Both the position numbers and the translations under genes were made by a program. From Longimicrobiales bacterium (GTDB taxonomy: Bacteria; Gemmatimonadota; Gemmatimonadetes; Longimicrobiales; Gaopeijiaceae), in assembly GCA_965198065.1 (NCBI GenBank), contig CBDAON010000004.1, positions 1,088,001 to 1,152,000 on the forward strand: 64,000 nt of DNA. Reading direction: 5' to 3'. Below the pieces are notes generated by a model. That model had not been told where the DNA came from. It was given only the letters and a program-made list of their open reading frames with translations, and made no database searches. Below, piece after piece: positions 27,652 through 42,995 of the stretch (the stretch's first letter is position 1; the number at the start of each line of letters is the position of its first letter).

Positions 27652-27683
27652 CCCGCCCTCGCACCCTCCGCGCCGAGGCCGCC

Positions 27684-28037
27684 GTGCGTAACCTGATCGT
27701 ACGACTCTTCGTGAACGCCGTGGCCCTCTGGGTCTCCGCGCGCCTGGTGGGCGGCATCGAGCTTGCCGGAAGTTTCTCGGAGGTGCTCCTGGTCGCCGCG
27801 GTGTTCGGGATCGTGAACGCGCTGCTCAAGCCGCTCGTCGTCCTTCTCTCCCTCCCCTTCCTGATCCTCACGCTCGGCCTCTTCGCGCTCGTCATCAACG
27901 CGTCGATGCTGATGCTCACGGCTGCGCTCGTGGATTCGCTCGTGGTCGAGGGGTGGTGGGCGGCGCTGGTGGGGAGCGTGCTTGTCTCGCTCGTGAGCCT
28001 TCTCTTCTCAATCATGCTCCCGGATGCGCGGGACTGA
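27684..28037 (+). CDS. 4-TM phage-holin-family (YvlD-like) membrane protein
   Basis: GIVNALLKP...LSLPFLILTLGLFALVINA. Confidence 0.88.
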   Translation: MRNLIVRLFVNAVALWVSARLVGGIELAGSFSEVLLVAAVFGIVNALLKPLVVLLSLPFLILTLGLFALVINASMLMLTAALVDSLVVEGWWAALVGSVLVSLVSLLFSIMLPDARD

Positions 28038-28053
28038 AGCGCTCGTCCAGGCC

Positions 28054-29442
28054 CTACGCCCGACCCGCCTCCGCAGTCGGTACCGGCTGCGGCTGGACGC
28101 GTTCGTCCTCGCCGTAGTGGCGGTACTTCCAGCCTAGCCACAGCGCGAGCCCGAGCCAGGCCGCCGAGAACGGGACCATCACCCACGCGATAGCCGCCAG
28201 GGAGAGCCCCATCCACGTCATGAGCGCGCTCTGCGACCAGATGCCCACCTGGTCCCCGAAGCGGTAGACCGCCGTGTCGTTGAAGTTCTTCGACTTGAAC
28301 TTGTCCACCCTCGGAACGACCGTGTAGAGGACCTCCCTCGCGGGACGCTGCACCGAGAAGTTCGCGGCCCGTCGGAAGACCTGGAACGCGACCACAACCG
28401 AGAGGACGGAAGCGAACCCCAGGATCCCGAACCCGATCAGGCTCACCAGGGGGAGGAAAGCCAGCGAGAGCCCGATCCCGAACCACTTGAGGATGCGCCC
28501 CGTGAGGAAGAGCTGGGTGATCAGGGTGAGGCTCTGCACCGCCATCTCCATCACAGCGAAGAGGCGGATCGAGCCCTCGGGATTCCCCTCGTAAGCGGTC
28601 TCGACGATCGCGATGAGGTGCACGTAGAGGAACGTGGACACGACCGTGAAGAAGACCATGAGGCCCGCGACTCCGAGCAGGTAGGGGGACTTCGCCACGT
28701 GGCGGATCCCCTCCAGGAGCCCGCCCCCGATCACCTCCTGCTGGCGCTGCTCCGGGGCGACGACCTCCGGCAAGGTTCCCGATACGATCTCGCGGTCTCT
28801 CTCCGCCACGTCGTAGACCTTCTTCTCGTGCCGCTCCAGCATCTTCGACGCCCGCCCCGCTCCCTCGAGTAGGACGGCGGAGACGAGGAGCAGGTTTACC
28901 GGCCCCAGGAACGACACGAAGAACGCAGTGATGGAGGACCCGGTGAGCGCCCCGATCGTGCCCCCCACCGCCACCATCCCAAAGAGCCGCTTCCCCTGCG
29001 CGGGGCGGAAGACGTCCGTGAGGAAGGACCAGAACACGGACACCACGAAGAGGTTGAAGACGCTCGTCCACATATAGAAGAGCCGTCCCACCCAGACGCT
29101 CGGGACGATGTCGGCGGCCCGGAAAAGCAGGAAGAAGACGACCAGGTTCAGGATGAAGAACCGGTAGATCCACGGAACGAACACGCGGCGCGGATAGCGC
29201 CCGACGAGAGCCGTGAAGACCGGGTGGACGAGGAGCATCCCGATGAGCGTGCCCGTGAAGAGCCACGGGAGCGTCGTCGCCCCGCTCTCGACTCCCATCT
29301 GGTCACGGATAGGCCGGATGACGTAGTAGGCCGCGAGAACAAGGAAGAAGTACGCGAACGACCAGAGAAGGGCGGCGACCTCCTCGTCCCGGACGTCGAT
29401 CGTGCGCCGGAGCAGGTTCCCCACGGCGGTGCTCAAGGCCAT
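28054..29442 (-). CDS. NTT/TLC-like (ATP:ADP antiporter family) MFS transporter
   Basis: YYVIRPIRD, FNLFVVSVFWSF, KRLFG, PAREVLYT, KFKSKNFND...RFGD. Confidence 0.85.
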   Translation of the reverse strand: MALSTAVGNLLRRTIDVRDEEVAALLWSFAYFFLVLAAYYVIRPIRDQMGVESGATTLPWLFTGTLIGMLLVHPVFTALVGRYPRRVFVPWIYRFFILNLVVFFLLFRAADIVPSVWVGRLFYMWTSVFNLFVVSVFWSFLTDVFRPAQGKRLFGMVAVGGTIGALTGSSITAFFVSFLGPVNLLLVSAVLLEGAGRASKMLERHEKKVYDVAERDREIVSGTLPEVVAPEQRQQEVIGGGLLEGIRHVAKSPYLLGVAGLMVFFTVVSTFLYVHLIAIVETAYEGNPEGSIRLFAVMEMAVQSLTLITQLFLTGRILKWFGIGLSLAFLPLVSLIGFGILGFASVLSVVVAFQVFRRAANFSVQRPAREVLYTVVPRVDKFKSKNFNDTAVYRFGDQVGIWSQSALMTWMGLSLAAIAWVMVPFSAAWLGLALWLGWKYRHYGEDERVQPQPVPTAEAGRA

Positions 29443-29597
29443 CCTCCCTGGCTGCGGGTTCGACGGGCACGGCCGCGCTCCACGGGCGTCGAACCTACCC
29501 AGATTGTCGATCGGAAGGCGTTCCTGCCAGGGGGAGCCGCGCGGGGAGGAGCAGGCGGCTCTCTACGGGTCCCGAGTCAAGGGCACAGGGCCCGTCG

Positions 29598-30827
29598 TCA
29601 GTACCTCGGAATGGTGGGATCCACCTCACTCTGCCAGGCGCGGATACCGCCCTTCAGGTTCCAGACCTTGCGGAAGCCCGCGTCCTGGAGCCTCTTCAGC
29701 GCCTCCGCGCTCCTGGACCCCGCCTGGCAGTGGAGGACGATTTCCTCCGCGGAATCCAGCTCGGGCATCCGCTCGAGCAGGTTGTCCAGGGGGATCAGCT
29801 CGGCTCCGTACGCCCCTAGGTTCACGATTTCCCACTCGTGCGGCTCACGCACGTCCACGATCCGGAGACGGTCGCCCCGCTCGAGTCGGGCGTGGAGCTC
29901 CTTCGCGGTGACCGTGGGAACGTCCGACTGATCCTCCGCGGCTCCCTCCTCGTAGCCCGGGACACCGCAGAACTCGAGGTAGTCGATGAGCTCGGTGACG
30001 GTCGGGTTCTCGCCGCACACCGGGCACTCTGGGTTCTTGCGGAGCTTCAACGTCCGCCACTCCAGAGTGAGCGCGTCGAAGAGGAGGAGCCGCCCAATCA
30101 GGGGCTCCCCGCGGCCGATGATGAGCTTGATCGTCTCGAGCGCCTGCATGGCTCCGATGATGCCGGGGAGCACGCCGAGCACCCCGCCCTCGGCGCAGCT
30201 CGGCACCATCCCGGGGGGCGGCGGCTCTCGAAAAAGGCACCGGTAGCACGGGCCGTGGCGGGCGTCGAAGACGGACACCTGGCCCTCGAAGCGGAAGATG
30301 GAGCCGTACACGTTCGGCTTGCCCAGGAGAACGCACGCGTCGTTCGTGAGGTAACGCGTCGGGAAGTTGTCCGTCCCGTCCACGACCACGTCGTACGGGC
30401 GGATCACGTCCAGCGCGTTCTCGCTCGTCAGGCGGATTTCGTGAGGCACGACCTCGACGTGCGGGTTCACGTCCTTCAGGCGCTCGGCGGCGGACTCGAT
30501 CTTCGGGCGCCCGACGTCTTTCGTGCCATGGAGGAGCTGTCGCTGGAGGTTCGTCCGGTCCACGACATCGAAGTCCACGATGCCGACCCTTCCGATCCCG
30601 GCCGCCGCCAGGTACAGCCCTAAAGGGGACCCCAGCCCCCCGGCTCCGATCATGAGGACGCTCGCGTTCTTCAACCGGCGCTGCCCGGCCATCCCGACCT
30701 CAGGCATGATGAGGTGCCGGGAGTATCGCTCGATCTCCTCGTTCGACAGGTGGGGAAGCTCCCCCGCAGGAACGGTCCAAGGGGGGAAGCCCACTGGGCC
30801 GGTCGAGTTGCCGCTGGGCTTGCTCAT
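29598..30827 (-). CDS. moeB: MoeZ/MoeBR sulfur-carrier adenylyltransferase with C-terminal rhodanese domain
   Basis: RYSRH, GAGGLG, NLQRQ, DGTDNF, CYRC, CAEGGVLG, CPVC; rhodanese DVREPHE...HCQAGSRS. Confidence 0.93.
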   Translation of the reverse strand: MSKPSGNSTGPVGFPPWTVPAGELPHLSNEEIERYSRHLIMPEVGMAGQRRLKNASVLMIGAGGLGSPLGLYLAAAGIGRVGIVDFDVVDRTNLQRQLLHGTKDVGRPKIESAAERLKDVNPHVEVVPHEIRLTSENALDVIRPYDVVVDGTDNFPTRYLTNDACVLLGKPNVYGSIFRFEGQVSVFDARHGPCYRCLFREPPPPGMVPSCAEGGVLGVLPGIIGAMQALETIKLIIGRGEPLIGRLLLFDALTLEWRTLKLRKNPECPVCGENPTVTELIDYLEFCGVPGYEEGAAEDQSDVPTVTAKELHARLERGDRLRIVDVREPHEWEIVNLGAYGAELIPLDNLLERMPELDSAEEIVLHCQAGSRSAEALKRLQDAGFRKVWNLKGGIRAWQSEVDPTIPRY

Positions 30828-30904
30828 TCGGATAGAGGTTCCCTCTCGGCCGGGCCGAGCGTCATCGTCCCGGGTCGCGTTCTCGGTCGGCCGGGCGGGT
30901 GCCG

Positions 30905-31543
30905 TCAGGCCGCCAGATGCTGGTGGATGTCGCGCGCGGCCTCGATCCGGACCTCGAGGGCAAGCCGGTCTCGGGGGTCGTTCGCGACCCGGGAGACCTG
31001 GACAGGGAGCCCTCCATAGACTGCGGTCACGGCCTCGCGGGCCACGTCCCTCAGGGCCTCGAATCCCGCGTCCGTGTTGGGCGCCCGGAGCCGGTCGTTC
31101 GACTCGATCCGCAGCAGGGAGGCGTCGAAGTCGAGCTTCCCCTGCACGCGCGGGTCGGTCTCAAGAAGCGCCGCCACGCGGAGCGCTTGCTTCAGGGTCG
31201 AGGCGATCGCTTCCGTTGCGTCACCCTCGAGCGGCACCCGTCGCTGGGCGAGGAGGCCGGACCGCCCGTCCGCGCAATCCAGGGCAAAGCTCACCTCCTG
31301 GGAGATCAGCATGATCCCCGGGCTGTCGGGCGCGTGCGCGTAGTCGGCCACATCCAGGAGGACCAGGTCCAGCGCCCCGTCCCGGATCCACTCGTGGAAG
31401 ATCGGGACGAACACCTCCACGTCGTCCTCAATCTCGGGGGGAGCGGACGTGTAGAGCTTCACGCAGATGCGATAGAGGCCCTCCAGGCCGGCCGATCCCA
31501 CGCTGCCCGCGGTCGCGCCCGCTCCGCCGCCGCCTCCGCTCAC
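30905..31543 (-). CDS. Hypothetical protein translationally coupled to sulfite reductase
   Basis: GTG overlaps sir stop; FVPIFHEWIR...LLDVADYAH...PGIMLI. Confidence 0.75.
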   Translation of the reverse strand: MSGGGGGAGATAGSVGSAGLEGLYRICVKLYTSAPPEIEDDVEVFVPIFHEWIRDGALDLVLLDVADYAHAPDSPGIMLISQEVSFALDCADGRSGLLAQRRVPLEGDATEAIASTLKQALRVAALLETDPRVQGKLDFDASLLRIESNDRLRAPNTDAGFEALRDVAREAVTAVYGGLPVQVSRVANDPRDRLALEVRIEAARDIHQHLAA

Positions 31544-33882
31544 AACGGAAACCCCACGCCCAATCCGTTTCCGCCCGTCCCCGCGGCCTGCGCCTCGAGG
31601 AGGCGGCTGTAACACCCGTGCGCCGCCTCGACGAAGAGCTGCGCTTCCTCAACCCGGCGATGGGCTTCGTCCCCGTCCCGGACCCGGCCCCCGGCCTCGT
31701 GCACGCTCTGGAGGTACCCCCACTCCTTCGCGCCCACGAAACGCTCGAAGAACAGCTCCGTATCGATGAACTTCATCTTGAACTCGGGGAACACGAGCGC
31801 AGGATCGCCCTTCTGATCCGGGTTCTCGGCCTTGAGGAGACCCTGGGCCGCGAGGATCATCGCCTGGTAGGCGAGCTGACCGGCTTCGTCGAAGCGCGCC
31901 GGTCCCGCTCTTTCGTCGTCCAGGAGCACCGACGCGTCGAACGCCTTGGACTCCGCGTTCGCAAGGCTGAATTGGGTGAGCGTCACGACCTCCCCAGCGC
32001 ACTCGCCCACGCCGATGTCCCCGATCGAGTACTCGCGCGCGTCGTGCCAGTCGACGTAGAAGGTCGGATCGGTCTCGTAGGCCGGCACGGCGAGGAGATC
32101 CCCGAGCCTCCCCTTGATCTCCTTCTTCCCCACCCGCACGACCCACGAGCGGAACGTCTCGTCCGACTCACGCTCGGTCGTGTAAAGGTCGAGGAGCCGA
32201 TCCACCGTCTCCGGGATCCGCTTGGACGGAACGGCACCCATGGCCAGCCCGTAGCTCCCCGCGTTCTCCTCGAGCGATCCGCCGAGAAGCAGCTGGAAGT
32301 GGGGCACCTTGTAGGCGCCCACGTTCCGGCTCGAGCCGTAGAAGCCGATGTCGGCGATGTGATGCATCCCGCACGAGTTCGGGCACCCGCTCACCTTGAT
32401 GTGCACGTCCTTGAGGACCGGATCCAAATGGAGCTCTCGCTCGTGCAGGCGCTCCCTGAGCTCGGCGCCAAGCCCGCGCGAGCTGGCGATCCCGAGCTTG
32501 CAGGTGTCCGTGCCCGGGCATGCGGTCACGTCGGTGATCGTCGCCGCGCCCGTAGACACGAGCTTCGCCTCGTGGAGCTCGTTGTAGATAGCGACCAAGT
32601 CCTTCTCGTGGATCCAGCGGAGGAAGAAGTTCTGGTCCACGTTCGTGCGGAGCGCGCCGGGAGCGTACTTCCGGACGAGGTCCGCGAGCCTGCGCGTCTG
32701 ACGGGACGTGATGTCGCCCAGGGGAAGGTTGATCGTGACCGCCACGGACCCCTCTTGGCGCTGCCGGTAGACGTTCGTCTTCGACCACTCCTCGAACCCG
32801 TCCGCCGGCACGGTCGACTCGTCGGTGACCGGCTCCGAGCGCCCCTCGATCTGGGGCAGGCGCGCCTCCTCGAGCCAGGCGTCCCAGCGCGGATCGGGCT
32901 CAAGCGCAGACAGCTCCTCCTCCACCACGCACTTGAACTCGTCGATCCCGAGCTTGGCCACGAGGAACTTGATCCGGGCCTTGTTCCGGTTCCGCTTCTC
33001 GCCCAGCCGGGCGAAGACGCGGGCGATCGCCTGTGAGAGCGGGAGCATCTGGGCTTCCGGCATAAACTCGTAGAGCACCTTGGCCACGTGCGGGACGGGC
33101 CCAAGCCCACCGCCCACCACCACCGTGAAGCCCCGCTCCTCCACGCCGTCCACCTCCCGGGTCGCCGCGACGAACCCGAGGTCATGCATCATGACGCGGG
33201 AGCAGCCCTCATGTCCGCATCCGGAGTATGCGATCTTGAACTTCCGCCCGAAGTCCTGGACGTCCGGATGACCGAGGAGGAAGGAGGCCTCGGCCTTCGC
33301 GTAGGGAGAGATGTCGAAGCGCTCGTCCGTGCAGATCCCCGCCTTGGGGCAACCGGTGACGTTCCGGACCGAGTTCCCGCACGCCTCCCGTGTCGTGATC
33401 CCAACAGCGGCCAGGCGCCGGTGCAGATCCGGCGTGTCCTCGATATCGACGAAGTGCAGCTGGACATCCTGTCGGGTCGTGATGTGGAGGACCGCGTTCG
33501 AGTACTCCTCCGCGCAGTCCGCGAGGACCTCGAGCTGCTCGGCCGTGACCTGCCCGTACGGGATCTTGATCCGCTGCATTCCCGGCGCGTCCCATTCGGT
33601 CTCGGGCCCCTTCGTAAGCCCGAGGCGCCGGAAGGGGAGCTCCTGGGTCTTGGTCCCATCGTAGCGCTGACCGTTGTCGTAGCGCTGGCCGTAGGCGCCC
33701 CGCCGGAGGCGAAGCTCGGCGAAGACCTTGTCCTCGATCTTTCCCTGTTTCCGGAGCTCCATCTGCGCCTCGTAGGAGTCGATCTCCTCCGTCACGTGGG
33801 GAGGAATGCTATCCGCGAGCCGCACCTTCCAGCTCCACTGCCCCGGACTAGTCGCGCCGGTGTTCGTCTCGCCTGGGCTCAT
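31540..33882 (-). CDS. sir: Ferredoxin-type sulfite (nitrite/sulfite) reductase, siroheme/[4Fe-4S]
   Basis: HITTRQ, CGNSVRN, RKFKIA, CPGTDTC and SGCPNSCG ligands; downstream of cysH. Confidence 0.9.
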   Translation of the reverse strand: MSPGETNTGATSPGQWSWKVRLADSIPPHVTEEIDSYEAQMELRKQGKIEDKVFAELRLRRGAYGQRYDNGQRYDGTKTQELPFRRLGLTKGPETEWDAPGMQRIKIPYGQVTAEQLEVLADCAEEYSNAVLHITTRQDVQLHFVDIEDTPDLHRRLAAVGITTREACGNSVRNVTGCPKAGICTDERFDISPYAKAEASFLLGHPDVQDFGRKFKIAYSGCGHEGCSRVMMHDLGFVAATREVDGVEERGFTVVVGGGLGPVPHVAKVLYEFMPEAQMLPLSQAIARVFARLGEKRNRNKARIKFLVAKLGIDEFKCVVEEELSALEPDPRWDAWLEEARLPQIEGRSEPVTDESTVPADGFEEWSKTNVYRQRQEGSVAVTINLPLGDITSRQTRRLADLVRKYAPGALRTNVDQNFFLRWIHEKDLVAIYNELHEAKLVSTGAATITDVTACPGTDTCKLGIASSRGLGAELRERLHERELHLDPVLKDVHIKVSGCPNSCGMHHIADIGFYGSSRNVGAYKVPHFQLLLGGSLEENAGSYGLAMGAVPSKRIPETVDRLLDLYTTERESDETFRSWVVRVGKKEIKGRLGDLLAVPAYETDPTFYVDWHDAREYSIGDIGVGECAGEVVTLTQFSLANAESKAFDASVLLDDERAGPARFDEAGQLAYQAMILAAQGLLKAENPDQKGDPALVFPEFKMKFIDTELFFERFVGAKEWGYLQSVHEAGGRVRDGDEAHRRVEEAQLFVEAAHGCYSRLLEAQAAGTGGNGLGVGFPL

Positions 33883-33946
33883 CGTTTGCCGTCCTGACTC
33901 GTCCCGCCGATTCACGTCGAGGTACGGGCTGGGTACCGTACCCTCG

Positions 33947-34732
33947 TCACAAGTTATGGAGCCCGCACTCTGTCCGGGTGCCCCCGCGCCACCGCCCCGC
34001 CCGCTCGTGCTCCCCCGGGAGCGTGGGCGTCGTGAGGGGCTCGTCCCCGATGCTCGCGTAGCCCTCGTCGTGGAGGGGATGATAGAGCACCCGGTTCACC
34101 ATGATGAACTCCCACACTTGGTCCAGGGTCCAGAGCGCGAGAGGGTTCACTTTCGTGCGGCCATTCTTCTCGACGATCGGAATCCCGGCTCGCGACTCCG
34201 ATTGGTCCCGTCGCCGGCCGCTGATCCACCCCTCGAAGCCGTCCAGCGCCCTCCGCATCGGCTCGACCTTCGTGAGCTGGTGGAACAGCTCCTCGTCCCG
34301 TTCCCAGAGGCGCTCCCCGTGCTGGGCCTCTAACGCCTCCCTCGACTTGGCGGCGGGGAACGTGCGGAGGTCGATCCCGTAGTGCTCGCGCACCCGCTCC
34401 GCATGCTCGAGGGTCTCCGGGAAGTGGTAGAGCGTATCCACGAAAAGCACGGGAGTGCGAATCCCCTCCTCCGCCAGCATGTGGATGAGGATCATCCCGC
34501 TGGGACCGAACGTGGACGACATCGCGACCCGGCCCTCGGGGAAGGCGGATGCGGCCCAGCGGAGCACCTCCCTCGGATCGGCTCCCTCGAAGTGGCGGCT
34601 GAGATCCGCGGCTTCCTCGGCGGTGAGAGAAGCCGATACGAACGGAGCCGGCGCCACCACCGGGTCCACCGCCCTGCCGTCCGCAGAGATGCCCATCGTC
34701 TCGACTCCGGCCCCCAGAATGTCCTCTCTCAC
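33947..34732 (-). CDS. cysH: Phosphoadenylyl-sulfate (PAPS/APS) reductase lacking Fe-S cysteines
   Basis: FVDTLYHFPET, KVEP, GRRRDQ, KVNPL, GYASIGD, RAGRW, ECGLH. Confidence 0.92.
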   Translation of the reverse strand: MREDILGAGVETMGISADGRAVDPVVAPAPFVSASLTAEEAADLSRHFEGADPREVLRWAASAFPEGRVAMSSTFGPSGMILIHMLAEEGIRTPVLFVDTLYHFPETLEHAERVREHYGIDLRTFPAAKSREALEAQHGERLWERDEELFHQLTKVEPMRRALDGFEGWISGRRRDQSESRAGIPIVEKNGRTKVNPLALWTLDQVWEFIMVNRVLYHPLHDEGYASIGDEPLTTPTLPGEHERAGRWRGGTRTECGLHNL

Positions 34733-34846
34733 CGCCGCCTCGTCCTTCCAAGCTCCGTTCGCCAGACCTTCGTCCGCCCCCAGCTGCCGCTCCTGTCCAC
34801 CGGCACCGGTCCGCGCTCCACCTTCCGTCCTAGTCCCGCCCCGGCC

Positions 34847-34880
34847 AAATCAAAAGCCCCGACCTCTTGGAGGTCGGGGC
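34847..34880 (-). terminator. Intrinsic terminator (attenuator) between leader ORF and cysH
   Basis: GCCCCGACCTC-CAA-GAGGTCGGGGC-TTTTGATTT. Confidence 0.85.
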
Positions 34881-34905
34881 CGAAGTCCTCTGCGCGATCG
34901 GGCGG

Positions 34906-34989
34906 CTACGCGAAGTGTCTCCGGGACCCACCCCCAGCGGGGGAGGCCGGACAAGAACACATCGCGCAACACATCGCGGTCATAGCCAT
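34906..34989 (-). CDS. Met/Cys-rich leader peptide MAMTAMCCAMCSCPASPAGGGSRRHFA (27 aa)
   Basis: 4 Met + 4 Cys in the first 13 codons; lies between promoter and terminator upstream of cysH. Confidence 0.8.
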   Translation of the reverse strand: MAMTAMCCAMCSCPASPAGGGSRRHFA

Positions 34990-34998
34990 AGCGAGAAG

Positions 34999-35027
34999 AC
35001 TTTAGGCCGAAGGGCGGGGGACGTCAA
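34999..35027 (-). promoter_or_regulatory. sigma70 promoter of the leader-cysH operon
   Basis: TTGACG-N17-TAAAGT; -10 ends 9 nt before the leader ATG. Confidence 0.8.
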
Positions 35028-36700
35028 GGCCCTCCGGAGCCTTCCGGAGCCCCGTGGCCGACCTTCCCCGTCCCCGTCCGCCGGCTCCCGCGGGCAGCTT
35101 CGAGCTCGGTCCTGGCCATGGACATGAACACGGAGCACGGCTCCGGGCAGGGGATCTGGCCCCCGGGACCTGCCTTCTCGCCCGCGGGGTCACCGCCCGC
35201 CCAAGTGGGACGGCGGAGGCACCGCCCCGGGGCACAGCACCGGGAAACGACCCGCTCCACCCCCTTCTCGTCGAGCTCCGCGACGCCCGCATAGATCCCG
35301 GTCTGGCGAGGCGCCGCCCGGGCAAACGGGGTGAGCGCGAGCCGGCCCCGTAGGGCCAGGTGCCGGTGGACGAGCGCGGTCGGGTAGAGATGCGCGTAGG
35401 CCTCCCAGACCTGGTCGGGCGAGAGGTCGGTGAGGCGCCACCCACCGGCCAGGTCCGGCGCGGTCTTGAGTGGCCGATGGACTCCGTTCCCTGAGCGGGC
35501 CGCGACCTCGAGCGCGTCCTCCGGATCGAGGAGTTGCCGGAGCTCGGCCCCGTCCCGACCGCGGTCGTCCACGTGCCGGATTTCGTAACGCCGCTCGTGG
35601 GCGGGGGTCGCCCCGGCACCCCCCGGCTGCGGTGCGAGCGGACGGACTACCGCCTGGAGCACGTCCCACCCATCGGGACCCGCTTCCCCAAGCCAGGCGG
35701 CGAAGGCCTCCCTCGCCTCGCGAACGTCGGAGGGCGTGGGCGGCGACCGGCCTCCGGGACTCTTCTCGTCAGTCTCCCGGCCGGGCGTCCGATCGTCGGG
35801 CCCATCGGTGCGTCCCTCCCCTCCTTCCTCCTCCCGAACGATCCGGTGGACGAGGTCGACCAGCGACGGATGCGTGCCCACCGGCTGCGCGTACCAGATC
35901 GTCGCGCCGCCCCTCTCCGTCCGACCTCCCGAGATGGCCAGCGTCGCCGGAACGGTCGAGCCCGCGTGCCATCCCTCTGACATGAAGAAGGGGACGAGGA
36001 TCACGTTCCCGTCCGCGAGCTGGGGAAGGAGCTGCTCGACGCGGGGATCTTGGTCCAGGAACGCCGCGAGCACGCGGCGGTAGGGGCCACGCGCGCGGAT
36101 GCGCTCGACGACAGCAAGAGTCGTGTCTCCCGAGCGGGAATGGGCGTCCGTCCCGTGCCCGATCACGACGAGCGTCGCGCCGGCCTCGTCCCCCGCATCG
36201 AGCGGGGCCACCTCTCTGGCCCGCTCGCGTACGATCGCCTCCATGTGCGGATGCGCGCCCACCGGCGGACAGAGGCGGAGGACCCGGCCGGAGCGGCGGG
36301 TCACCCGTCCCGCGAGGCCGAGCTCTCGGGGGACGACCGTCTCCGTGAAGTAACCAGTGCTCGTAAACAGGGGAACGACGAGCACCTCGCGACTCTCGAC
36401 CAGGTCGAGCGCGGTGTGGAGGTGCGGGTCCTCCTTCCAGAACCCCACCCGGACCTCGGCGAACGCACGGTCCTCCCTCAGCCGGCAGGCCAGGAGGTGG
36501 ACGGGACGGGCGGAGTCCGAGCTGTGGTGGGAGCCGTGCCCCACGAGAAGCACTCCCGCGGCCGACCCACCGCCCCCGGACGGGCTCCGGCCGGCCCACT
36601 CGGGGCCCTGACTCCCGCCTTCCCGCGTCCTTGACAAGGTTCGAACGCCTCCCCTACGTAAGGCTCCAGCGCCGGAGGCGCGCCGCTCCGAAGGTTCCAC
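35024..36700 (-). CDS. CbiX/SirB-type chelatase fused to a Cys-containing DR2241-like C-terminal domain
   Basis: LLVGHGS, FWKEDP, VPLF...GYF, IGHGT, PFF..GWH; C-terminal RPLKTAPDL, CC...C, PCPEPC. Confidence 0.82.
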   Translation of the reverse strand: MEPSERRASGAGALRRGGVRTLSRTREGGSQGPEWAGRSPSGGGGSAAGVLLVGHGSHHSSDSARPVHLLACRLREDRAFAEVRVGFWKEDPHLHTALDLVESREVLVVPLFTSTGYFTETVVPRELGLAGRVTRRSGRVLRLCPPVGAHPHMEAIVRERAREVAPLDAGDEAGATLVVIGHGTDAHSRSGDTTLAVVERIRARGPYRRVLAAFLDQDPRVEQLLPQLADGNVILVPFFMSEGWHAGSTVPATLAISGGRTERGGATIWYAQPVGTHPSLVDLVHRIVREEEGGEGRTDGPDDRTPGRETDEKSPGGRSPPTPSDVREAREAFAAWLGEAGPDGWDVLQAVVRPLAPQPGGAGATPAHERRYEIRHVDDRGRDGAELRQLLDPEDALEVAARSGNGVHRPLKTAPDLAGGWRLTDLSPDQVWEAYAHLYPTALVHRHLALRGRLALTPFARAAPRQTGIYAGVAELDEKGVERVVSRCCAPGRCLRRPTWAGGDPAGEKAGPGGQIPCPEPCSVFMSMARTELEAARGSRRTGTGKVGHGAPEGSGGP

Positions 36701-36898
36701 GCGCGCGGCCCCGGAGTCGCGCGAGCGCCATCCGCCTCAACCTAACGAAGCCCTTCCGCGACGCCGAAGGAACCGGAGGGCGGGCGAGTACCGGCGATGA
36801 CCCGACGAGCCCCCGACCGCTCTCCAGGCCGGGGGCTCGCGCCCTTTCGGGCGGGAAGCGTCGCCAGGGCGTGGAGGGGAACGCCAGAAGGTGGACCG

Positions 36899-37726
36899 AT
36901 GACCCGAAAGCGACCGGGAACCGTATACCTCGTCGGGGCCGGCCCCGGCGACCCGGATCTTCTCACCCGAAAGGGCGCGCGGCTCCTGGCCGTGGCGGGT
37001 GCGGTCGTGCACGACGCCCTCATTGACTCCAGGCTTTTTACGGAGGTCGCGCCCGGCGCCGAGCTGTACGACGTGGGGCGGCGAGCGGGGACGAAGCGAC
37101 TGGACCAACCCCAAGTGAACGAGCTCCTGATCAAGCTCGCGGGGGTCCATGAGATCGTGGTTCGACTGAAGGGGGGAGACCCGTTTGTCTTCGGTCGTGG
37201 GGGAGAGGAGGCAATCGCGCTCAAGGCCGCCGGCATACCGTTCGAGGTGGTTCCTGGAGTCACGTCAGGGGGTGCGGTCCCCGCGTACGCGGGGATCCCC
37301 CTGACCCACCGGGGAGTGGCCTCGTCGGTGACGTTCCTCACCGGGCACCAAGTCACGTCTGCCCCGGAGGGGGCGGAAGCCTCGAGCCCCATCACCCGGG
37401 AGGGGACGCTCGTGATCTTCATGGGCCTCCTCAGGGTCGAGGAGATCGCGCGGGGACTGATCGAGCGAGGTCTATCGCCGGACACGCCGACGGCGGTGAT
37501 CCAGTCGGGGACCTACGCGTCCCAGCGGACCGTCACGGGAGTGCTGGCGGACATCGGGGAGCGGGCGCGGGCGGGTCGCATTTCGCGCCCCGCGCTCATC
37601 GTGGTCGGGGACGTCGTGGCGCTTCGCGAGGGGATCCGCTGGTTCCCCGAGGCGGGAGTCGAAACAGCGACCGGCAAAGGCCCCCCCGAGCGGGGAGTGG
37701 CTCAGGGCGCGGACAAAGCGAAGTGA
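36899..37726 (+). CDS. cobA: Uroporphyrinogen-III C-methyltransferase (siroheme synthesis)
   Basis: VYLVGAGPGDPDLLT, RLKGGDPFVFGRGGEE, PGVTS, GIPLTHR. Confidence 0.93.
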   Translation: MTRKRPGTVYLVGAGPGDPDLLTRKGARLLAVAGAVVHDALIDSRLFTEVAPGAELYDVGRRAGTKRLDQPQVNELLIKLAGVHEIVVRLKGGDPFVFGRGGEEAIALKAAGIPFEVVPGVTSGGAVPAYAGIPLTHRGVASSVTFLTGHQVTSAPEGAEASSPITREGTLVIFMGLLRVEEIARGLIERGLSPDTPTAVIQSGTYASQRTVTGVLADIGERARAGRISRPALIVVGDVVALREGIRWFPEAGVETATGKGPPERGVAQGADKAK

Positions 37727-37947
37727 GTGTAGTTCTTCTCGATGTAGGCCGTCCACTCCGGGGGCACGTCGGTATCCGGAAAGATCGCCTGAACCGGGCA
37801 CTCGGGCTCGCAGGCCCCGCAGTCGATGCACTCTTCGGGCTGGATGTAGTACTGGTCGTCCGCGTCGTAAATGCAGTCCACGGGGCAGACGTCCACGCAG
37901 CTCGCGTCCTTCGTGCCGATGCAGGGCTCGGCGATGATGTAGGTCAT
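37702..37947 (-). CDS. Ferredoxin (7Fe/8Fe FdxA type)
   Basis: MTYIIAEPC...CVDVCPVDC...CIDCGACEPECP. Confidence 0.93.
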   Translation of the reverse strand: MTYIIAEPCIGTKDASCVDVCPVDCIYDADDQYYIQPEECIDCGACEPECPVQAIFPDTDVPPEWTAYIEKNYTHFALSAP

Positions 37948-38471
37948 AGACCGTCGGCTGAGGTAGTTCTTGCGCTTGAGTACCTCTCCTCCCCCCGACT
38001 CCGTTCTGCCGGAAGCTCCGACACGGGGACCCGCAGGGGCGACCCGGGCGCCGCCGGATTCCAGCGCCACGCCCCCATGGCCGCCCAGTCGTCCGAGGCG
38101 TCCTCCCCCACGATGAGCCAAAGCACTTCGGGCCACAGCTCCATGTATCCCCGATCGATCGAGGACGGAACCGGCCGCCCCACCGGGTGGGAGTGGTAGA
38201 ATCCCACGATCTCGTGCCCCGTTCCCCGGAGCGAGCGTTCCTCCTCGATCACCCGTCGAGGATCGATCGTGAACCGCGTTCGCCTTCGACCCGCCGGAGC
38301 CTCGTTGGGGCACGGGATCGCGCGCGTGACCCAGATGTCCCCGTCCTGGATCCGCCCCACCAAGAGCCCACACGCCTCGTCGGGAGACGCCCGTCTCGCG
38401 TCCTCCACCACGGTCCGCGAGACGTCCGGGGAGAGGTAGGCGCCCTCGGTCCACCCCTCCCCACCGCTCAC
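37944..38471 (-). CDS. JAMM/MPN+ (Mec-like, M67) metalloprotease
   Basis: EACGLL...GFYHSHP...PSSID JAMM motif. Confidence 0.9.
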   Translation of the reverse strand: MSGGEGWTEGAYLSPDVSRTVVEDARRASPDEACGLLVGRIQDGDIWVTRAIPCPNEAPAGRRRTRFTIDPRRVIEEERSLRGTGHEIVGFYHSHPVGRPVPSSIDRGYMELWPEVLWLIVGEDASDDWAAMGAWRWNPAAPGSPLRVPVSELPAERSRGEERYSSARTTSADGL

Positions 38472-38758
38472 CAGTCGGGCCCCACACCCCCCGCGATGGA
38501 GGGAACGATGGATACCTCGTCGCCTTCCTTCACGGGCGTGTCCAGATCCTTCTCGTAACGGACGTCGGTGCCGTTCACGAACACGTTCAGGAACTGTCGC
38601 ACCTCGCCCTGCTCTCCGAGGATCCGGCCGAGGAGATCGGGGTGCGTACTCCCGAGGTCGTCGAACAGCTCCCGCACGGTAGCCCCTTCCGCCTGGAGCT
38701 CCGCCTGTCCGTTCGTGAGCTTACGAAGCGCGCTCGGCACTCGGACGGTAACGCTCAT
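38468..38758 (-). CDS. CysO/MoaD-like ubiquitin-fold sulfur carrier with C-terminal extension after GG
   Basis: VRVPSALR...LNVFVNG..VR....LDT.V..GDEVSIVPSIAGG-VGPDW. Confidence 0.92.
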   Translation of the reverse strand: MSVTVRVPSALRKLTNGQAELQAEGATVRELFDDLGSTHPDLLGRILGEQGEVRQFLNVFVNGTDVRYEKDLDTPVKEGDEVSIVPSIAGGVGPDW

Positions 38759-40032
38759 CCCTCTACCTCCTCGCTCGCGGCCAGTCGCTCCACCTCGGCG
38801 AGCCTCGGCTGGATGGGATCCTCCAGCCGGAACGTGCCGCGCGCGGCATCCGGAGTCTTGAGCCCGTTCCCCGTGATGCAGAGAACGGTGGGTCCGTCAC
38901 GCCGGAGCCGACCGTCCCGGACCAGGCGCGCCGCAGCGGAAACCGTAACGCCTCCGGCCGTTTCCGTGAAGACGCCATCCAAGGTCGCCAGCAGGCCGAT
39001 CCCGTCAACGATCTCCGGGTCGGACACCGCCTCCCCCCAGCCTCCGGTCTCCTGGATCGTCTCCACCGCAAACAGACCGTCCGCCGGATTTCCGATCGCG
39101 AGCGAGCGTGCGATGGTGTTGGGTTTCTGAATCGGCCGCACCTGCCGCTCTCCGGCCTGCACCGCGTTCACGATGGGTGCGCAGCCCGACGCCTGTGCGC
39201 CGAACATCCGGGGCTCCGGACCCTCCTCGACGAGGCCGGTCTTCATGAGCTCGCGGAAGCTCTTCCGAACCTTCGTGATGAGCGACCCGCCCGCCATGGG
39301 GACGACGACGTTCGCGGGCAGCGTCCAGCCGAGCTGCTCGGCGATCTCGTACCCCATGGACTTCGAGCCCTCGCTGTAGTAGGCCCTGAGATTGACGTTC
39401 ACGATTCCCCATCCGAACCGGTCCGCCACCTCCGCACAAAGCCGATTCACATCGTCGTACACCCCCCGTACGCGGACCACCCTCGCCCCGTGCACGCCCG
39501 TCGCAACGATCTTTTCCACCTCCAGGTCCTCGGGAATGAAGATCCAGGCGCGGAGGCCCGCGGTCGCGGCCTGTGCGGCCACCGCGTTCGCTAGGTTGCC
39601 TGTCGACGCGCATCCGACCACGTCCATGCCGAACTCCCCCGCACGTTGGAGAGCGACCGCAACGACTCGGTCCTTGAACGACTGCGTCGGATGGTTCGAC
39701 GAGTCTACCTTGATCCAGAGATCATCGATGCCCAGCGCGGCTCCCAGCCTCGGAGCTCGGAGGAGCGGCGTCCACCCGACCCCGAGCCCGCGGGTCGGCT
39801 CCTCGGCAACGGGCAGGAGCTCGCGGTACCGCCACAGGTCGGTAGGTCGCGATGCGATCCTCTCCCGCGTGAGCCGACCGCGGAGCCGCTCAAGATCGTA
39901 GACGACCTCTAGAGGACCAAAGCACTCCTCGCAGACGTGATGCGGGCCGGCTTCCGTCTCCGTCCCACAAATTCGACATCGAAGCGTGCTCAGCGCCGCG
40001 GGGGCGAGGGGTGCCAAGTTCGTCTCGCTCAT
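38755..40032 (-). CDS. Threonine-synthase-like PLP enzyme (fold type II) with N-terminal Zn ribbon
   Basis: CRIC...CEEC, PTQSFKDR, ASTGNLA, EGSKS, PMAGGSL, ITGNGLK; start ATG 40032. Confidence 0.88.
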   Translation of the reverse strand: MSETNLAPLAPAALSTLRCRICGTETEAGPHHVCEECFGPLEVVYDLERLRGRLTRERIASRPTDLWRYRELLPVAEEPTRGLGVGWTPLLRAPRLGAALGIDDLWIKVDSSNHPTQSFKDRVVAVALQRAGEFGMDVVGCASTGNLANAVAAQAATAGLRAWIFIPEDLEVEKIVATGVHGARVVRVRGVYDDVNRLCAEVADRFGWGIVNVNLRAYYSEGSKSMGYEIAEQLGWTLPANVVVPMAGGSLITKVRKSFRELMKTGLVEEGPEPRMFGAQASGCAPIVNAVQAGERQVRPIQKPNTIARSLAIGNPADGLFAVETIQETGGWGEAVSDPEIVDGIGLLATLDGVFTETAGGVTVSAAARLVRDGRLRRDGPTVLCITGNGLKTPDAARGTFRLEDPIQPRLAEVERLAASEEVEG

Positions 40033-40150
40033 CGCCTCTATCGTCTCCTGCGCGGTCTGGCCCAAGGGCGGCCCACCCGCGCCGTGTCCACCGCCCGGAG
40101 GCGCCGAAAGATCGCGAGAAACGCGTTCCCGGCAACCCGCCGGCCTCCTT

Positions 40151-40197
40151 AGAAAAAGGAAAGAGCCCCGACCTCTCTGGAAGAAGGCCGGGGCTCT
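40151..40197 (-). terminator. Intrinsic terminator (attenuator) between leader ORF and thrC-like gene
   Basis: AGAGCCCCGGCCT-TCTTCCAGAG-AGGTCGGGGCTCT-TTCCTTTTTCT. Confidence 0.85.
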
Positions 40198-40220
40198 CTC
40201 GCTCCGTCGGGTCCGCTTGC

Positions 40221-40328
40221 CTAGCGCCTGGCGCCTCCGGACACGACCGTCCCCGATGCGCCTTCCTCCATGGAGGAAGCCGACATCGAACAACGGCACA
40301 TGCACATGTAGCCGCGAGCGACCCGCAT
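40221..40328 (-). CDS. Met/Cys-rich leader peptide MRVARGYMCMCRCSMSASSMEEGASGTVVSGGARR (35 aa)
   Basis: MCMCRCSM cluster; AGGAG RBS 10 nt upstream; lies between promoter and terminator. Confidence 0.8.
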   Translation of the reverse strand: MRVARGYMCMCRCSMSASSMEEGASGTVVSGGARR

Positions 40329-40375
40329 TATCGTCCGACTCCTCTGCTTCGGATGAGCGGCCCCGACGAGCGCAA

Positions 40376-40404
40376 ACGGTACCGAAGCAGGCCAGAGGCG
40401 TCAA
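40376..40404 (-). promoter_or_regulatory. sigma70 promoter of the leader-thrC-like operon
   Basis: TTGACG-N17-TACCGT. Confidence 0.75.
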
Positions 40405-40610
40405 GTCTCTGACCCACACCTCGGACCGCGTCCAGTTGACCTCGCTGTGTGCCGCGTCTAGTCTCGTCAGGCGCGAACGCCGGGCTCGTCCTCTCCGCCG
40501 AACGAAAGGTACGTGCCGGCCCGACGGACGTGTCCTGTGAGGACATCTCCCATGACCATGTCGCTCTCTCGGTACCCCGCCCACGCCCTGGCGCCGCTCG
40601 AGGAGCGCCC

Positions 40611-41519
40611 GTGAGCGAGCCACTGCCCCCCGTCGGCTTCCTCGGCCTCGGAATTATGGGCGAGGGGATGGCCCGAAACCTCCTCGGGGCCGGCTTCCCG
40701 CTCACCGTGTGGAACCGCACGGCGCCGAAATCCGCCGCCCTGGCGAAGGAGGGGGCGACGCTCGGACGGGGTCCGGCCGACGTGGCCGAGCGCTCCGACA
40801 TCGTCTTCGTCTGTGTGAGCGATACGCCCGATGTCGAGGAGGTCGTGCTCGGGCCGGGCGGTGTACTCGTTGGCGCGCGTGCCGGCAGCCTGGTCGTGGA
40901 CATGAGCACCATCAGCCCGGCGACGACGCGGGAGATCTCGAGGCGGCTCGGTGAGGGCTCTGTCCACATGCTGGACGCTCCGGTGAGCGGAGGGAGCGAG
41001 GGGGCCCGAAAGGGCACGCTGAGCATCATGGTGGGGGGCGATGCCGATCAGGTCGAGCGCGCCATGCCGGCTTTCCGGGCGATGGGAAAGACGATCACGC
41101 ACGTGGGCCCAGTCGGAGCAGGGCAGACCGTGAAACTCGTGAACCAGATCGTGGTCGTCGTGAACATGCTGGCCGCCGCGGAGGGACTGCTCTTCGCGGA
41201 GGCCTCCGGGGTCGACCTGACCAAGACGCTCGAGGCGATCACGGAGGGCGCCGCGGGGAGCTGGATGCTCCAGAACCGTGGCCCGCAGGTCGTCGCGCGG
41301 GACTGGCGCCCCGGGTTCATGGTGGACCTGCAGCAGAAGGATCTCCGACTCGCACTCGAGGCCGCGGACGAGTTGGGAGTCCCCCTGCTCGGCACCGGGC
41401 TGGTGTTCCAACTCTACCGTACGCTCCAGCAAGCCGGGCTCGGGCGCGAGGGGAACCACGCCCTGGCCAAGGCGCTCGAACGACTGGCAGGATTCGAGAT
41501 CGGCACCGGCGGCGTCTGA
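40611..41519 (+). CDS. NAD(P)-dependent beta-hydroxyacid dehydrogenase (3-hydroxyisobutyrate DH/GarR family)
   Basis: GFLGLGIMG, DMSTISP, DAPVSGG, KLVNQ, KDL; AGGAG RBS. Confidence 0.9.
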   Translation: MSEPLPPVGFLGLGIMGEGMARNLLGAGFPLTVWNRTAPKSAALAKEGATLGRGPADVAERSDIVFVCVSDTPDVEEVVLGPGGVLVGARAGSLVVDMSTISPATTREISRRLGEGSVHMLDAPVSGGSEGARKGTLSIMVGGDADQVERAMPAFRAMGKTITHVGPVGAGQTVKLVNQIVVVVNMLAAAEGLLFAEASGVDLTKTLEAITEGAAGSWMLQNRGPQVVARDWRPGFMVDLQQKDLRLALEAADELGVPLLGTGLVFQLYRTLQQAGLGREGNHALAKALERLAGFEIGTGGV

Positions 41520-41618
41520 CGGCTCGATTGCCGGACGGTTTTCGCGCTTGGCGCCGCGCTAGCTCTCTCGCGGACTCGAACGGAGGAGGGCCGTCCCTGG
41601 CTCGAACTGCGCCGCGTC

Positions 41619-42995
41619 TTACGGGTTCGGCGGGGGCGCCGCCGGCCGCTCCCGGAGCCGGACCATGAACGTCAGCTCCTCTCCGTCCCGCACGACAGTG
41701 GCCTCCACCTCGGCCCCCGCCTCGAGCTGGTCGAGCGCGTCCGTCATCACGTAGAGGTCCTCGATCTCGAACGGCCCGAGACGGATCAGGACATCCCCCG
41801 CCCGAAGCCCACCCTCGTCCGCCGGCGAGCCGTCGGTGACTCCGCTCAAGCGGACGCCGAAGTCCACCGGCGCGAAGTCGGGGATCGTTCCCAGGTAAGC
41901 CCGGTTCCCCGAAGACGCCATCGTCTGCGGCGCGCCCGCGCCCGCCACGTGCGTCAGGCGCTCGGGGCGGTCGGCTACCGCGCGGATGGTCGCTTCGACC
42001 AGTGAGGTCACGCGCTCGAGGCCGGCCCGGTCGATCAGCTCCCAGTCGTCCTCCGGTCGGTGGTACTGCCCGTGTACGTTCGTGAAGTAGTGGAGGACCG
42101 GGACGTCCCGGGCGTAGAACGACGTGTGGTCGCTCGGGCCGTACCCTTCGGGGGAGCGAGCGAGCGGGACCCCCTCCGCGCGCTCCACGTTGTCGAGGAT
42201 CTCGTTCCACTCCTCGGCCGTGCCCGTTCCGTTCACGATGAGCGGCTGGCCCGCCAGGCGACCGACCATGTCCAGGTTCACCATCCCCACCGTCCGCTCT
42301 ACCGGCACGGACGGATCCTGGACGTACCGGCTCGACCCGAGGAGACCCGCTTCCTCACCCGAAAACGTCACGAAGACCACGGTCCGCGCCGGCGGGCTCG
42401 CCGCGAGGGCCTCGGCCACCGCGAGGAGCGCACCCACGCCCGAGGCGTTGTCGTCCGCCCCGTTGTGCACCTCTCCAGGCGCGTCGGCCAGCGACCCGAA
42501 CATCTCACCCAGGCCCAGATGGTCGTGATGGGCCCCCAGGACCACTGCCTCCGAGCGGCGCGCTGGATTGGAGCCCTCGAGGATCCCGATCACGTTCGTC
42601 CCGGTGCCCTCCGGCGCGTGGGGGCTCACGGCGCTCTGGAGCTCGACCGTCTGGAAATACCCGCCCCCGGCTCCCTCCGGGGTCACGGGCTCGAGCCCGA
42701 TCCGCGCGAACTCGCGGGCGATGTACTCGGCCGTGCAACGCTCGCCCTCGGTGCCGGCCAGGCGCCCCTGGAGCTGATCGTCCGAGAGATAGCGGACCGC
42801 CGCCAAGGGGTGCTCGAGGTCTCTTACGAGCCCGGCCGGAGCTGGGCAGGTGGTCGTGCCCTGGGCGGAGGGCGGCTGAGGCGGTGCCTGTCCGGAGGCA
42901 GCCGCCGTGAGGACGAGGAAGAGCCCCACCCGGCCCGCCGATGCGATGGCGAGCTCCCTCGGGCCCCGGAGCGGCGAAAGGCGCCCGCTCCTCAT
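41619..42995 (-). CDS. Exported M28 peptidase with C-terminal PDZ domain
   Basis: GAHHDH, GADDNASG, GEEAGLLGS, NLDM, SDH, YHRPED; YLGTIPD...SPA..GGL..GD. Confidence 0.9.
   Translation of the reverse strand: MRSGRLSPLRGPRELAIASAGRVGLFLVLTAAASGQAPPQPPSAQGTTTCPAPAGLVRDLEHPLAAVRYLSDDQLQGRLAGTEGERCTAEYIAREFARIGLEPVTPEGAGGGYFQTVELQSAVSPHAPEGTGTNVIGILEGSNPARRSEAVVLGAHHDHLGLGEMFGSLADAPGEVHNGADDNASGVGALLAVAEALAASPPARTVVFVTFSGEEAGLLGSSRYVQDPSVPVERTVGMVNLDMVGRLAGQPLIVNGTGTAEEWNEILDNVERAEGVPLARSPEGYGPSDHTSFYARDVPVLHYFTNVHGQYHRPEDDWELIDRAGLERVTSLVEATIRAVADRPERLTHVAGAGAPQTMASSGNRAYLGTIPDFAPVDFGVRLSGVTDGSPADEGGLRAGDVLIRLGPFEIEDLYVMTDALDQLEAGAEVEATVVRDGEELTFMVRLRERPAAPPPNP

Follow-up and report, generated by a model that had tools for sequence, protein, structure and literature searches.

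We analysed a window of 64,000 nucleotides from a Longimicrobiales bacterium (assembly GCA_965198065.1, contig CBDAON010000004.1, positions 1,088,001 to 1,152,000), in which positions 29598-40032 hold ten genes, among them sulfate-reduction genes, a sulfur carrier gene and a gene for an enzyme of the threonine synthase (ThrC) fold. A preliminary description of this DNA had proposed that the ThrC-like enzyme condenses a carrier thiocarboxylate with O-phosphohomoserine or O-phosphoserine and that a JAMM protease releases the product. We argue below that the cluster probably encodes the MetM/MetO route to homocysteine, placed under two methionine (Met)- and cysteine (Cys)-rich leaders. All the genes named previously were located in this span:

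40032-38755, minus: ThrC-fold enzyme of 425 amino acids using pyridoxal phosphate (PLP), likely MetM ortholog by tree and context
38758-38468, minus: sulfur carrier of the ThiS/MoaD family, MetO-like, 96 amino acids
38471-37944, minus: Prok-JAB (JAMM/Mec-like) metalloprotease
37947-37702, minus: FdxA-like ferredoxin, putative electron donor of the sulfite reductase
36797-37726, plus: CobA/CysG-C-terminal uroporphyrinogen-III methyltransferase, true start probably about 36899
36700-35024, minus: CbiX-type chelatase with DR2241 and 4Fe-4S domains, putative sirohydrochlorin ferrochelatase
34732-33947, minus: CysH, reductase of adenosine 5'-phosphosulfate (APS) or its 3'-phosphorylated form, above the cut-offs of TIGR00434 and PRK02090
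33915-31540, minus: protein of the nitrite/sulfite reductase family with a C-terminal extension of about 190 amino acids, sulfite reductase (Sir) by context
31615-30905, minus: conserved hypothetical protein between sir and moeZ, without family match, true start probably about 31486
30827-29598, minus: MoeZ-like adenylyltransferase with a rhodanese domain, putative maker of the carrier thiocarboxylate

The genes overlap by 4 nucleotides at three junctions (enzyme stop/carrier start, carrier/JAMM and JAMM/ferredoxin), the first being that of the enzyme and carrier genes noted before as coupled. Apart from the ThrC-like enzyme, the window has no match to PALP (PF00291) or to the Cys/Met-metabolism family (PF01053). 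The reported absence of cysK, cysM, metY and metZ holds within the window; cysK, a gene resembling that of cystathionine beta-synthase (CBS) and two cystathionine-lyase-like genes are found elsewhere in the genome. The "siroheme genes" comprise cobA and the CbiX-type chelatase; positions 29598-40032 showed no gene for a precorrin-2 dehydrogenase. Similarly, the "sulfite reductase" stands at the level of the family: it scored under every NCBIfam cut-off, and its sulfite substrate thus rests on context.

The ThrC-like enzyme and its product

The enzyme belongs to the ThrC family by profile matches (above the cut-offs of TIGR00260 and PRK08197), while it missed the cysteate synthase model TIGR03844 (57.9 of 324.9 bits) and obtained only 32 bits from CysM models. 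Its closest homologs with a source label were from Gemmatimonadota or Longimicrobiales. GTDB genomes were scanned for relatives, and the best 80 of at least 597 were all actinobacterial, mostly from Streptomyces. A carrier gene lies 3' of the enzyme gene in 78 of these 80 loci, and an S-adenosylmethionine-sensing SAM-I riboswitch lies 5' of it in 16 of the 16 loci scanned. A Nonomuraea homolog, 51% identical to the enzyme, is encoded 3' of a SAM-I riboswitch and 5' of a carrier gene whose product is 49% identical to the carrier of the window. In Streptomyces, a thiocarboxylate route from O-phosphohomoserine to homocysteine has been described that employs the carrier MetO, Mec, MoeZ and MetM (accessible parts of 10.1101/2024.10.14.618325 and PMC13759103). 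The pathway is that of Streptomyces albulus (Hasebe et al., 2024, as cited in the accessible text of PMC13759103 and PMC12172450); metM carries an upstream SAM riboswitch (PMC12172450, same portion), and GapMind, as far as its accessible text goes, describes MetM as "often misannotated" as threonine synthase (10.1101/2024.10.14.618325). Table 2 of PMC13759103 names UniProt A0A059WBP2 for MetM and A0A059W7F4 for MetO.

A quick IQ-TREE analysis placed the enzyme in a tree of 67 rows, comprising 26 Longimicrobiales orthologs, 19 actinobacterial homologs, ThrC, paralogs and a CysM/CysK/CBS outgroup, with no cysteate synthases. The tree omits a truncated ortholog, three duplicate actinobacterial rows, a weak partial match and 13 of 25 paralogs, as well as Streptomyces and own-genome PALP loci lacking a tblastn match, save six outgroup members. 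One branch (SH-aLRT support 99) unites the 26 Longimicrobiales orthologs with the 19 actinobacterial homologs and is separate from the hom/thrB-linked ThrC, the plant-type ThrC, the Gemmatimonadota paralogs and CysM/CysK/CBS; the enzyme therefore stands apart from true ThrC and CysM in the kind of phylogeny that the preliminary description had proposed as a check. The identity to the 19 actinobacterial homologs varies from 50 to 57%, compared to 29-36% for four canonical ThrC. Gemmatimonadota paralogs of 34-40% identity were considered as MetM orthologs and rejected, given their own branch in the tree. Paralogs of this identity range (L020-L044), with a strong PRK08197 match, form a second ThrC-like group beside the orthologs and are common in Longimicrobiales.

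Alternatively, the enzyme could be a threonine synthase, possibly bifunctional, that merely lies beside sulfur genes or makes threonine as well as homocysteine. Its family matches agree with this, and so does its fold: the AlphaFold model (predicted local distance difference test score, pLDDT, 89) has threonine synthases as its best structural matches (TM by query length, 0.72-0.83), and the solved sequences and folds that matched included no MetM structure. Fold, PLP lysine and about 31-36% identity are shared with ThrC of T. thermophilus (1uim), A. aeolicus (2zsj), M. tuberculosis (2d1f) and B. subtilis (6cgq), and Lys120 aligns with Lys61 of the T. thermophilus protein. Thr88, Arg160 and Asn188 of the latter, which we take to be its substrate-phosphate ligands, are, however, replaced by Leu147, Tyr219 and Gly248. 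Leu147 and Tyr219 are invariant in 38 homologs, and an invariant Arg216 lies three residues before Tyr219. The enzyme also differs from ThrC in an extra N-terminal four-cysteine segment, in its linkage to a carrier and in its Met/Cys-rich leader, whereas the leader of the thr operon is Thr-rich. A complex prediction gave weak support to binding of the carrier: the enzyme-carrier pair scored 0.40 versus 0.00 for the best of three controls, with contacts agreeing at least 68% and a partner pLDDT of at least 83; passing scores at or below 0.60 were obtained for 18 of 157 solved complexes and for both of the two mismatches, among 215, that passed.

Nor is the enzyme the sole thrC of the genome, the situation that was previously held to speak against the proposal. 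The genome (3.05 Mb, 87.6% complete) has two further thrC genes, one in a thrA-thrB-thrC operon and one of plant type with an open frame on contig C3, and at least two TIGR00260 matches were found in 27 of 27 ortholog genomes. The operon copy is frameshifted near C4:2468463 (operon region C4:2467967-2470175, L048). At this site the short-read contigs of X3 and X5 show the same sequence as the assembly, while those of X6 and X8 have two bases fewer, so the break looks real and strain-specific. Given the open plant-type thrC, the distinct leaders, the substitutions at the presumed phosphate-binding positions and the lack of grouping with hom/thrB-linked ThrC, we consider a threonine synthase improbable here. 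The threonine deaminase gene ilvA is also split across two frames (C4:1568711-1570349), and a group II intron fragment (RF02003) lies beside the plant-type thrC (L005:855-1065).

Both thrB and metH were above cut-off in the genome, which therefore encodes an O-phosphohomoserine supply and a methionine synthase that uses homocysteine. In contrast, metA, metX, metY, cysE and sat were not found at this completeness. With two other thrC genes present and metA, metX, metY and cysE not found, homocysteine rather than cysteine is likely the product of the cluster. Within the order, 27 of 401 genomes have an ortholog of the enzyme (E<=1e-90); among these 27, which are kin and several of which are incomplete, strong metX matches occur in two, weak ones in two more, metY in three and cysE in one. 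With the MetM route, these genomes would no longer look auxotrophic for Met and Cys.

The lack of cysE in 26 of the 27 ortholog genomes, the Cys codons in the leaders and the carrier, JAMM and MoeZ, which are also parts of the CysO/CysM/Mec system, would also suit a CysM-like cysteine synthase using O-phosphoserine and a carrier thiocarboxylate. Against this, the tree places the CysM of Streptomyces mec-carrier-cysM loci with the outgroup, a long way from the enzyme, the match to CysM models is the low one given above, homologs lie under SAM riboswitches, leaders of the same type precede metY, and cysteine supply can be explained by CBS and cystathionine lyase. A CysM-like role is thus very improbable, and of the two substrates originally proposed, only O-phosphohomoserine, with homocysteine as product, is retained; that branch is the one already published as MetM/MetO.

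The ThrC-fold enzyme is thus likely a MetM ortholog, i.e., a homocysteine synthase using a carrier thiocarboxylate, and on the sequence evidence we put the probability that the cluster encodes the MetM/MetO route to homocysteine at roughly 0.8. Several points weigh against this assignment. The tree came from a quick search that flagged long-branch meetings, and orthology to MetM was established by proxy, from the 80 like-arranged actinobacterial loci rather than from S. albulus MetM itself. A Microcystis homolog with 51.6% identity to MetM is reported to have threonine synthase activity in vitro and deaminase activity and not to be fully MetM-functional in cells (accessible portion of PMC12172450). 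At 87.6% completeness, gene absences are provisional; two relatives retain metX-metY beside the ortholog; the cysK of the genome itself makes another cysteine route possible; and the thr-operon thrC is the frameshifted copy described above.

The carrier tail and the JAMM protease

The Gly-Gly of the carrier (residues 90-91) is masked by a 5-residue tail, and the genome has no Prok-JAB match other than the JAMM gene at 37944-38471. Across 26 Longimicrobiales loci (a locus whose carrier is truncated was excluded), which are kin and not independent, a JAMM gene adjoins 15 of 16 tailed carriers versus 1 of 10 untailed ones; in the untailed set, the sequence stops in less than 600 bases at two loci, and the carrier of one locus stands in a different gene order. 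In Streptomyces, most carriers have Gly-Gly or Gly-Gly-Cys as their C-terminus, which fits the "MetO-L-cysteine hydrolase" of GapMind, and no JAMM match was found near any of the 80 actinobacterial loci (the best 80 of at least 597). In its accessible part, GapMind has Mec serve the maturation of MetO (10.1101/2024.10.14.618325). Because JAMM adjacency tracks the carrier tail and GapMind assigns Mec to maturation, maturation is the better-supported role, and JAMM likely trims the 5-residue tail.

Product release, as proposed initially, is what Mec and HcyD perform in the CysO and HcyS systems. A Prok-JAB gene occurs in 25 of 27 ortholog genomes, including most of those with an untailed carrier, and in one genome (G140) the JAMM gene is the first of a sulfur operon that has a Met/Cys leader of its own (L219), though the carrier ends in Gly-Gly. 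Release by JAMM is possible for these two reasons. That freeing homocysteine from a carrier-homocysteine adduct would be its main job is, however, rather doubtful, since adjacency follows the tail, GapMind gives Mec the maturation role, and in three untailed genomes (L236-L238) the JAMM gene sits beside a different carrier gene. In L236 and L237, a cysK/CBS-like gene, JAMM and carrier are consecutive, forming a separate CysO/CysM-type locus in two MetM-bearing genomes.

Met/Cys-rich leaders and probable transcript attenuation

Two short open reading frames (ORFs), each followed by a terminator-like hairpin, lie 5' of the enzyme gene and of cysH:

40328-40221, minus: leader ORF 1, 35 codons, 5' of the enzyme gene, predicted regulatory peptide of an attenuator
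about 40280-40272, minus: predicted protector (segment 1), inside leader ORF 1
about 40269-40251, minus: predicted antiterminator strand (segment 2), inside leader ORF 1
40151-40200, minus: intrinsic-terminator-like hairpin (segments 3:4, stem 40200-40159) with T-run, 5' of the enzyme gene
34999-35027, minus: sigma-70-like promoter match directly 5' of leader ORF 2, weak by itself, 1 found versus 0.5 expected by chance
34989-34906, minus: leader ORF 2, 27 codons, 5' of cysH, predicted attenuator of cysH-sir-moeZ
34847-34881, minus: intrinsic-terminator-like hairpin (stem 34881-34855) with T-run, after leader ORF 2

The opposite strand of cobA, the promoter-like site and the two terminators suggest about four transcription units rather than one. 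Leader ORF 1 has Met or Cys at codons 8-11, 13, 15 and 20 (4 internal Met, 3 Cys), and leader ORF 2 at codons 3, 6-8, 10, 11 and 13 (3 internal Met, 4 Cys). A genome-wide scan yielded 255 terminator-like sites and 92 leader candidates. Enrichment was judged by rank among these 92: seven Met+Cys codons were found in three candidates, two of which are the leaders of the window, and the next best had four. The third, also with a terminator (C4:1740357-1740580), lies 5' of a gene resembling those of dicarboxylate/amino-acid symporters, whose product may transport sulfur amino acids; the candidate was not recovered by the covariance model described below. In the same genome, a Thr-rich leader precedes thrA (C4:2472866-2472756) and a His-rich one precedes hisG (C4:1280963-1280880, minus), each with a terminator; classical-type leader attenuators thus exist in this lineage. 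No riboswitch was found by Rfam in window positions 27000-42000, where only two chance-level matches occurred; the enzyme gene thus has no SAM riboswitch match upstream.

An ORF with hairpin was found in 20 of the 26 orthologous loci (of 27) that have upstream DNA, with 2-10 Met+Cys codons, as picked by eye; at least two of the six loci lacking it lie inside an operon. Across two families, the Met/Cys codons persist amid changing surrounding sequence and are placed just before segment 1. The 20 homologous leaders were aligned, and the helices were chosen from those same sequences, which favours them. The protector helix 1:2, with 16 double changes, is 81% paired and the terminator helix 3:4 is 86% paired; for both, 0 of 500 shuffles reached the observed percent paired or covariation score. 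The antiterminator helix 2:3 is 81% paired, more than in any slid register. When the ribosome footprint was blocked in folding (about 13 of 21 results examined whole), segments 2 and 3 paired in the nascent transcripts of several homologs and the cysH leader, and in part in that of leader ORF 1; the terminator formed in most full-length folds.

A covariance model built from the 20 enzyme-gene leaders only has matches in 26 of 43 genomes and recovered the cysH leader of the window (E=3e-4). It matches Met/Cys leaders before cysH, before cobA-cysD and before a JAMM-led sulfur operon; it also matches thr leaders and some places without a visible leader. Related leaders precede a true metY in three genomes without MetM. 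In the loci seen, the leaders of cysH have, by eye, a greater share of Cys than those of the enzyme gene. Five of the 27 orthologous Longimicrobiales loci have a SAM-II riboswitch upstream, and a scan of nine loci by Rfam gave no riboswitch. In four loci (L019, L068, L071 and L072), the SAM-II riboswitch stands directly before the Met/Cys leader. A stretch before metH (C4:1952480-1952560) also looks SAM-II-like by eye but falls under the Rfam threshold.

From these comparisons, the two leaders are probably Met/Cys-sensing ribosome attenuators that switch genes on at a shortage of sulfur amino acids. At shortage, stalling on the Met/Cys codons would leave the ribosome over segment 1, so that segment 2 pairs with segment 3 and no terminator forms; with charged tRNAs, the ribosome would reach the stop codon and the terminator would form. 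It should be noted that the covariation of the 2:3 helix is within the shuffled range (120 of 500), that related sequences can exceed shuffles without structure, and that neither simulated stall gave the full 2:3 helix for leader ORF 1 of the window, all of which tell against attenuation. The enzyme assignment could be right and the leader ORFs still not be sensed by ribosomes, being by-products of a structured RNA or responding to another signal. Besides the weak 2:3 covariation, this would be in line with two homologous leaders that lack a Cys cluster and contain just 2-3 Met/Cys codons, with the chance that internal Met codons are alternative starts, and with the attenuator-like leaders of Streptomyces ilvB and leuA, which failed mutational tests (accessible text of PMC1262725). 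The retention of Met/Cys codons while flanking sequence varies, their position just before segment 1, the cognate His and Thr leaders of the same genome and the higher Cys share before cysH make such an explanation unlikely, and we retain ribosome-sensed attenuation.

The predicted leaders resemble the classical trp, his and thr attenuators in that a short ORF containing cognate codons is followed by alternative hairpins and a T-run. Unlike them, they combine Met with Cys codons, together with an intrinsic terminator. Methionine genes are usually under SAM riboswitches, T-boxes or repressors, and Met codons were reportedly predicted in some proteobacterial thr leaders in 2004. Cys leaders of Actinobacteria have been described without conserved terminators in a study that reports no RNA element ahead of methionine operons (PMC1262725), and they are also the subject of 10.1101/834739, as far as its accessible part indicates. 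We found no description of a terminator-based attenuator reading Met/Cys codons in the open literature, most subscription journals being outside this coverage. While the enzyme chemistry is already known, Met/Cys attenuation is the new-looking part.

The proposed route and comparison with known systems

The MetM/MetO route is likely joined here to its own sulfate-reduction genes. In the proposed pathway, CysDN (encoded elsewhere; cysD at C4:2247443, beside a cysQ-like gene), CysH and the siroheme reductase would yield sulfide, supported by CobA, CbiX and the ferredoxin. By eye, CysH lacks the cysteine pairs that we take to mark 4Fe-4S APS reductases, and for that reason it may need an APS kinase. 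JAMM would cut the 5-residue tail to expose Gly-Gly, and MoeZ would adenylate the carrier and load sulfur, directly or via its rhodanese cysteine, to give the thiocarboxylate. The ThrC-fold enzyme would then eliminate phosphate from O-phosphohomoserine, supplied by ThrA and ThrB, and add the carrier sulfur to the gamma carbon rather than water to the beta carbon; homocysteine would be freed by the enzyme itself or by JAMM. MetH would convert it to methionine, and CBS with cystathionine lyase would provide cysteine. Leaders that read both Met and Cys would make sense because both amino acids would come from the same homocysteine.

We lean slightly toward a broader interpretation, i.e., a Longimicrobiales sulfur regulon built on an undescribed family of Met/Cys attenuators, alone or behind SAM-II, with MetM as the single Met/Cys sulfur gate. 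Such a regulon would comprise metM-metO-mec, cysH-sir-moeZ, cobA-cysD and metY-metX, and its single-gate part would apply to genomes like that of the window.

Like the system of S. albulus, the locus has a ThrC-fold enzyme followed by a MoaD-like carrier, encodes Mec and MoeZ, has predicted methionine-type regulation and lies in a genome in which metA, metX and metY were not found, in addition to the 50-57% identity to actinobacterial homologs. It differs in its Gemmatimonadota host, in the gathering of all four genes with cysH, sir, the ferredoxin and the siroheme genes in one 11-kb island, in the 5-residue carrier tail versus none or a single Cys, and in predicted leader-peptide attenuators versus a SAM-I riboswitch. 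By the features that could be compared, the locus would thus fit the MetM/MetO kind in everything except the SAM riboswitch.

In Wolinella, HcyS, HcyD, HcyF, Sir and MetY make homocysteine with a sulfite reductase, a tailed carrier, a JAMM protease and an E1-like enzyme. The linkage of these parts is as in the window, but Wolinella uses MetY and O-acetylhomoserine, whereas the genome of the window yielded neither metY nor metX and its enzyme is ThrC-fold. The CysO/CysM/Mec/MoeZ system of mycobacteria and streptomycetes likewise works via a carrier thiocarboxylate with Mec and MoeZ, but its CysM is in the cysteine-synthase branch and the enzyme of the window is not. By analogy, the locus would work as both systems do, through a carrier thiocarboxylate, and would belong to neither. 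It would extend MetM/MetO to Gemmatimonadota and correct a "threonine synthase" annotation, and, as a compact island with all parts and two leaders, it could serve as a simple test system for product release and the sensing of methionine codons.

The conserved hypothetical gene at 30905-31615 keeps its position in six related loci, and its Atlas clusters (score 0.95) are from Myxococcota, Acidobacteriota and Chloroflexota, with no named family; that its product is a sulfide hand-over partner would be speculation. Directly after moeZ lies a transporter gene of the major facilitator superfamily (28054-29442), which has the same position in a relative (G104, L230) and may belong to the moeZ operon. 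Further along, at window positions 21579-27651, the translations indicate an AddA/AddB-like helicase-nuclease pair, a judgement made from translation alone.

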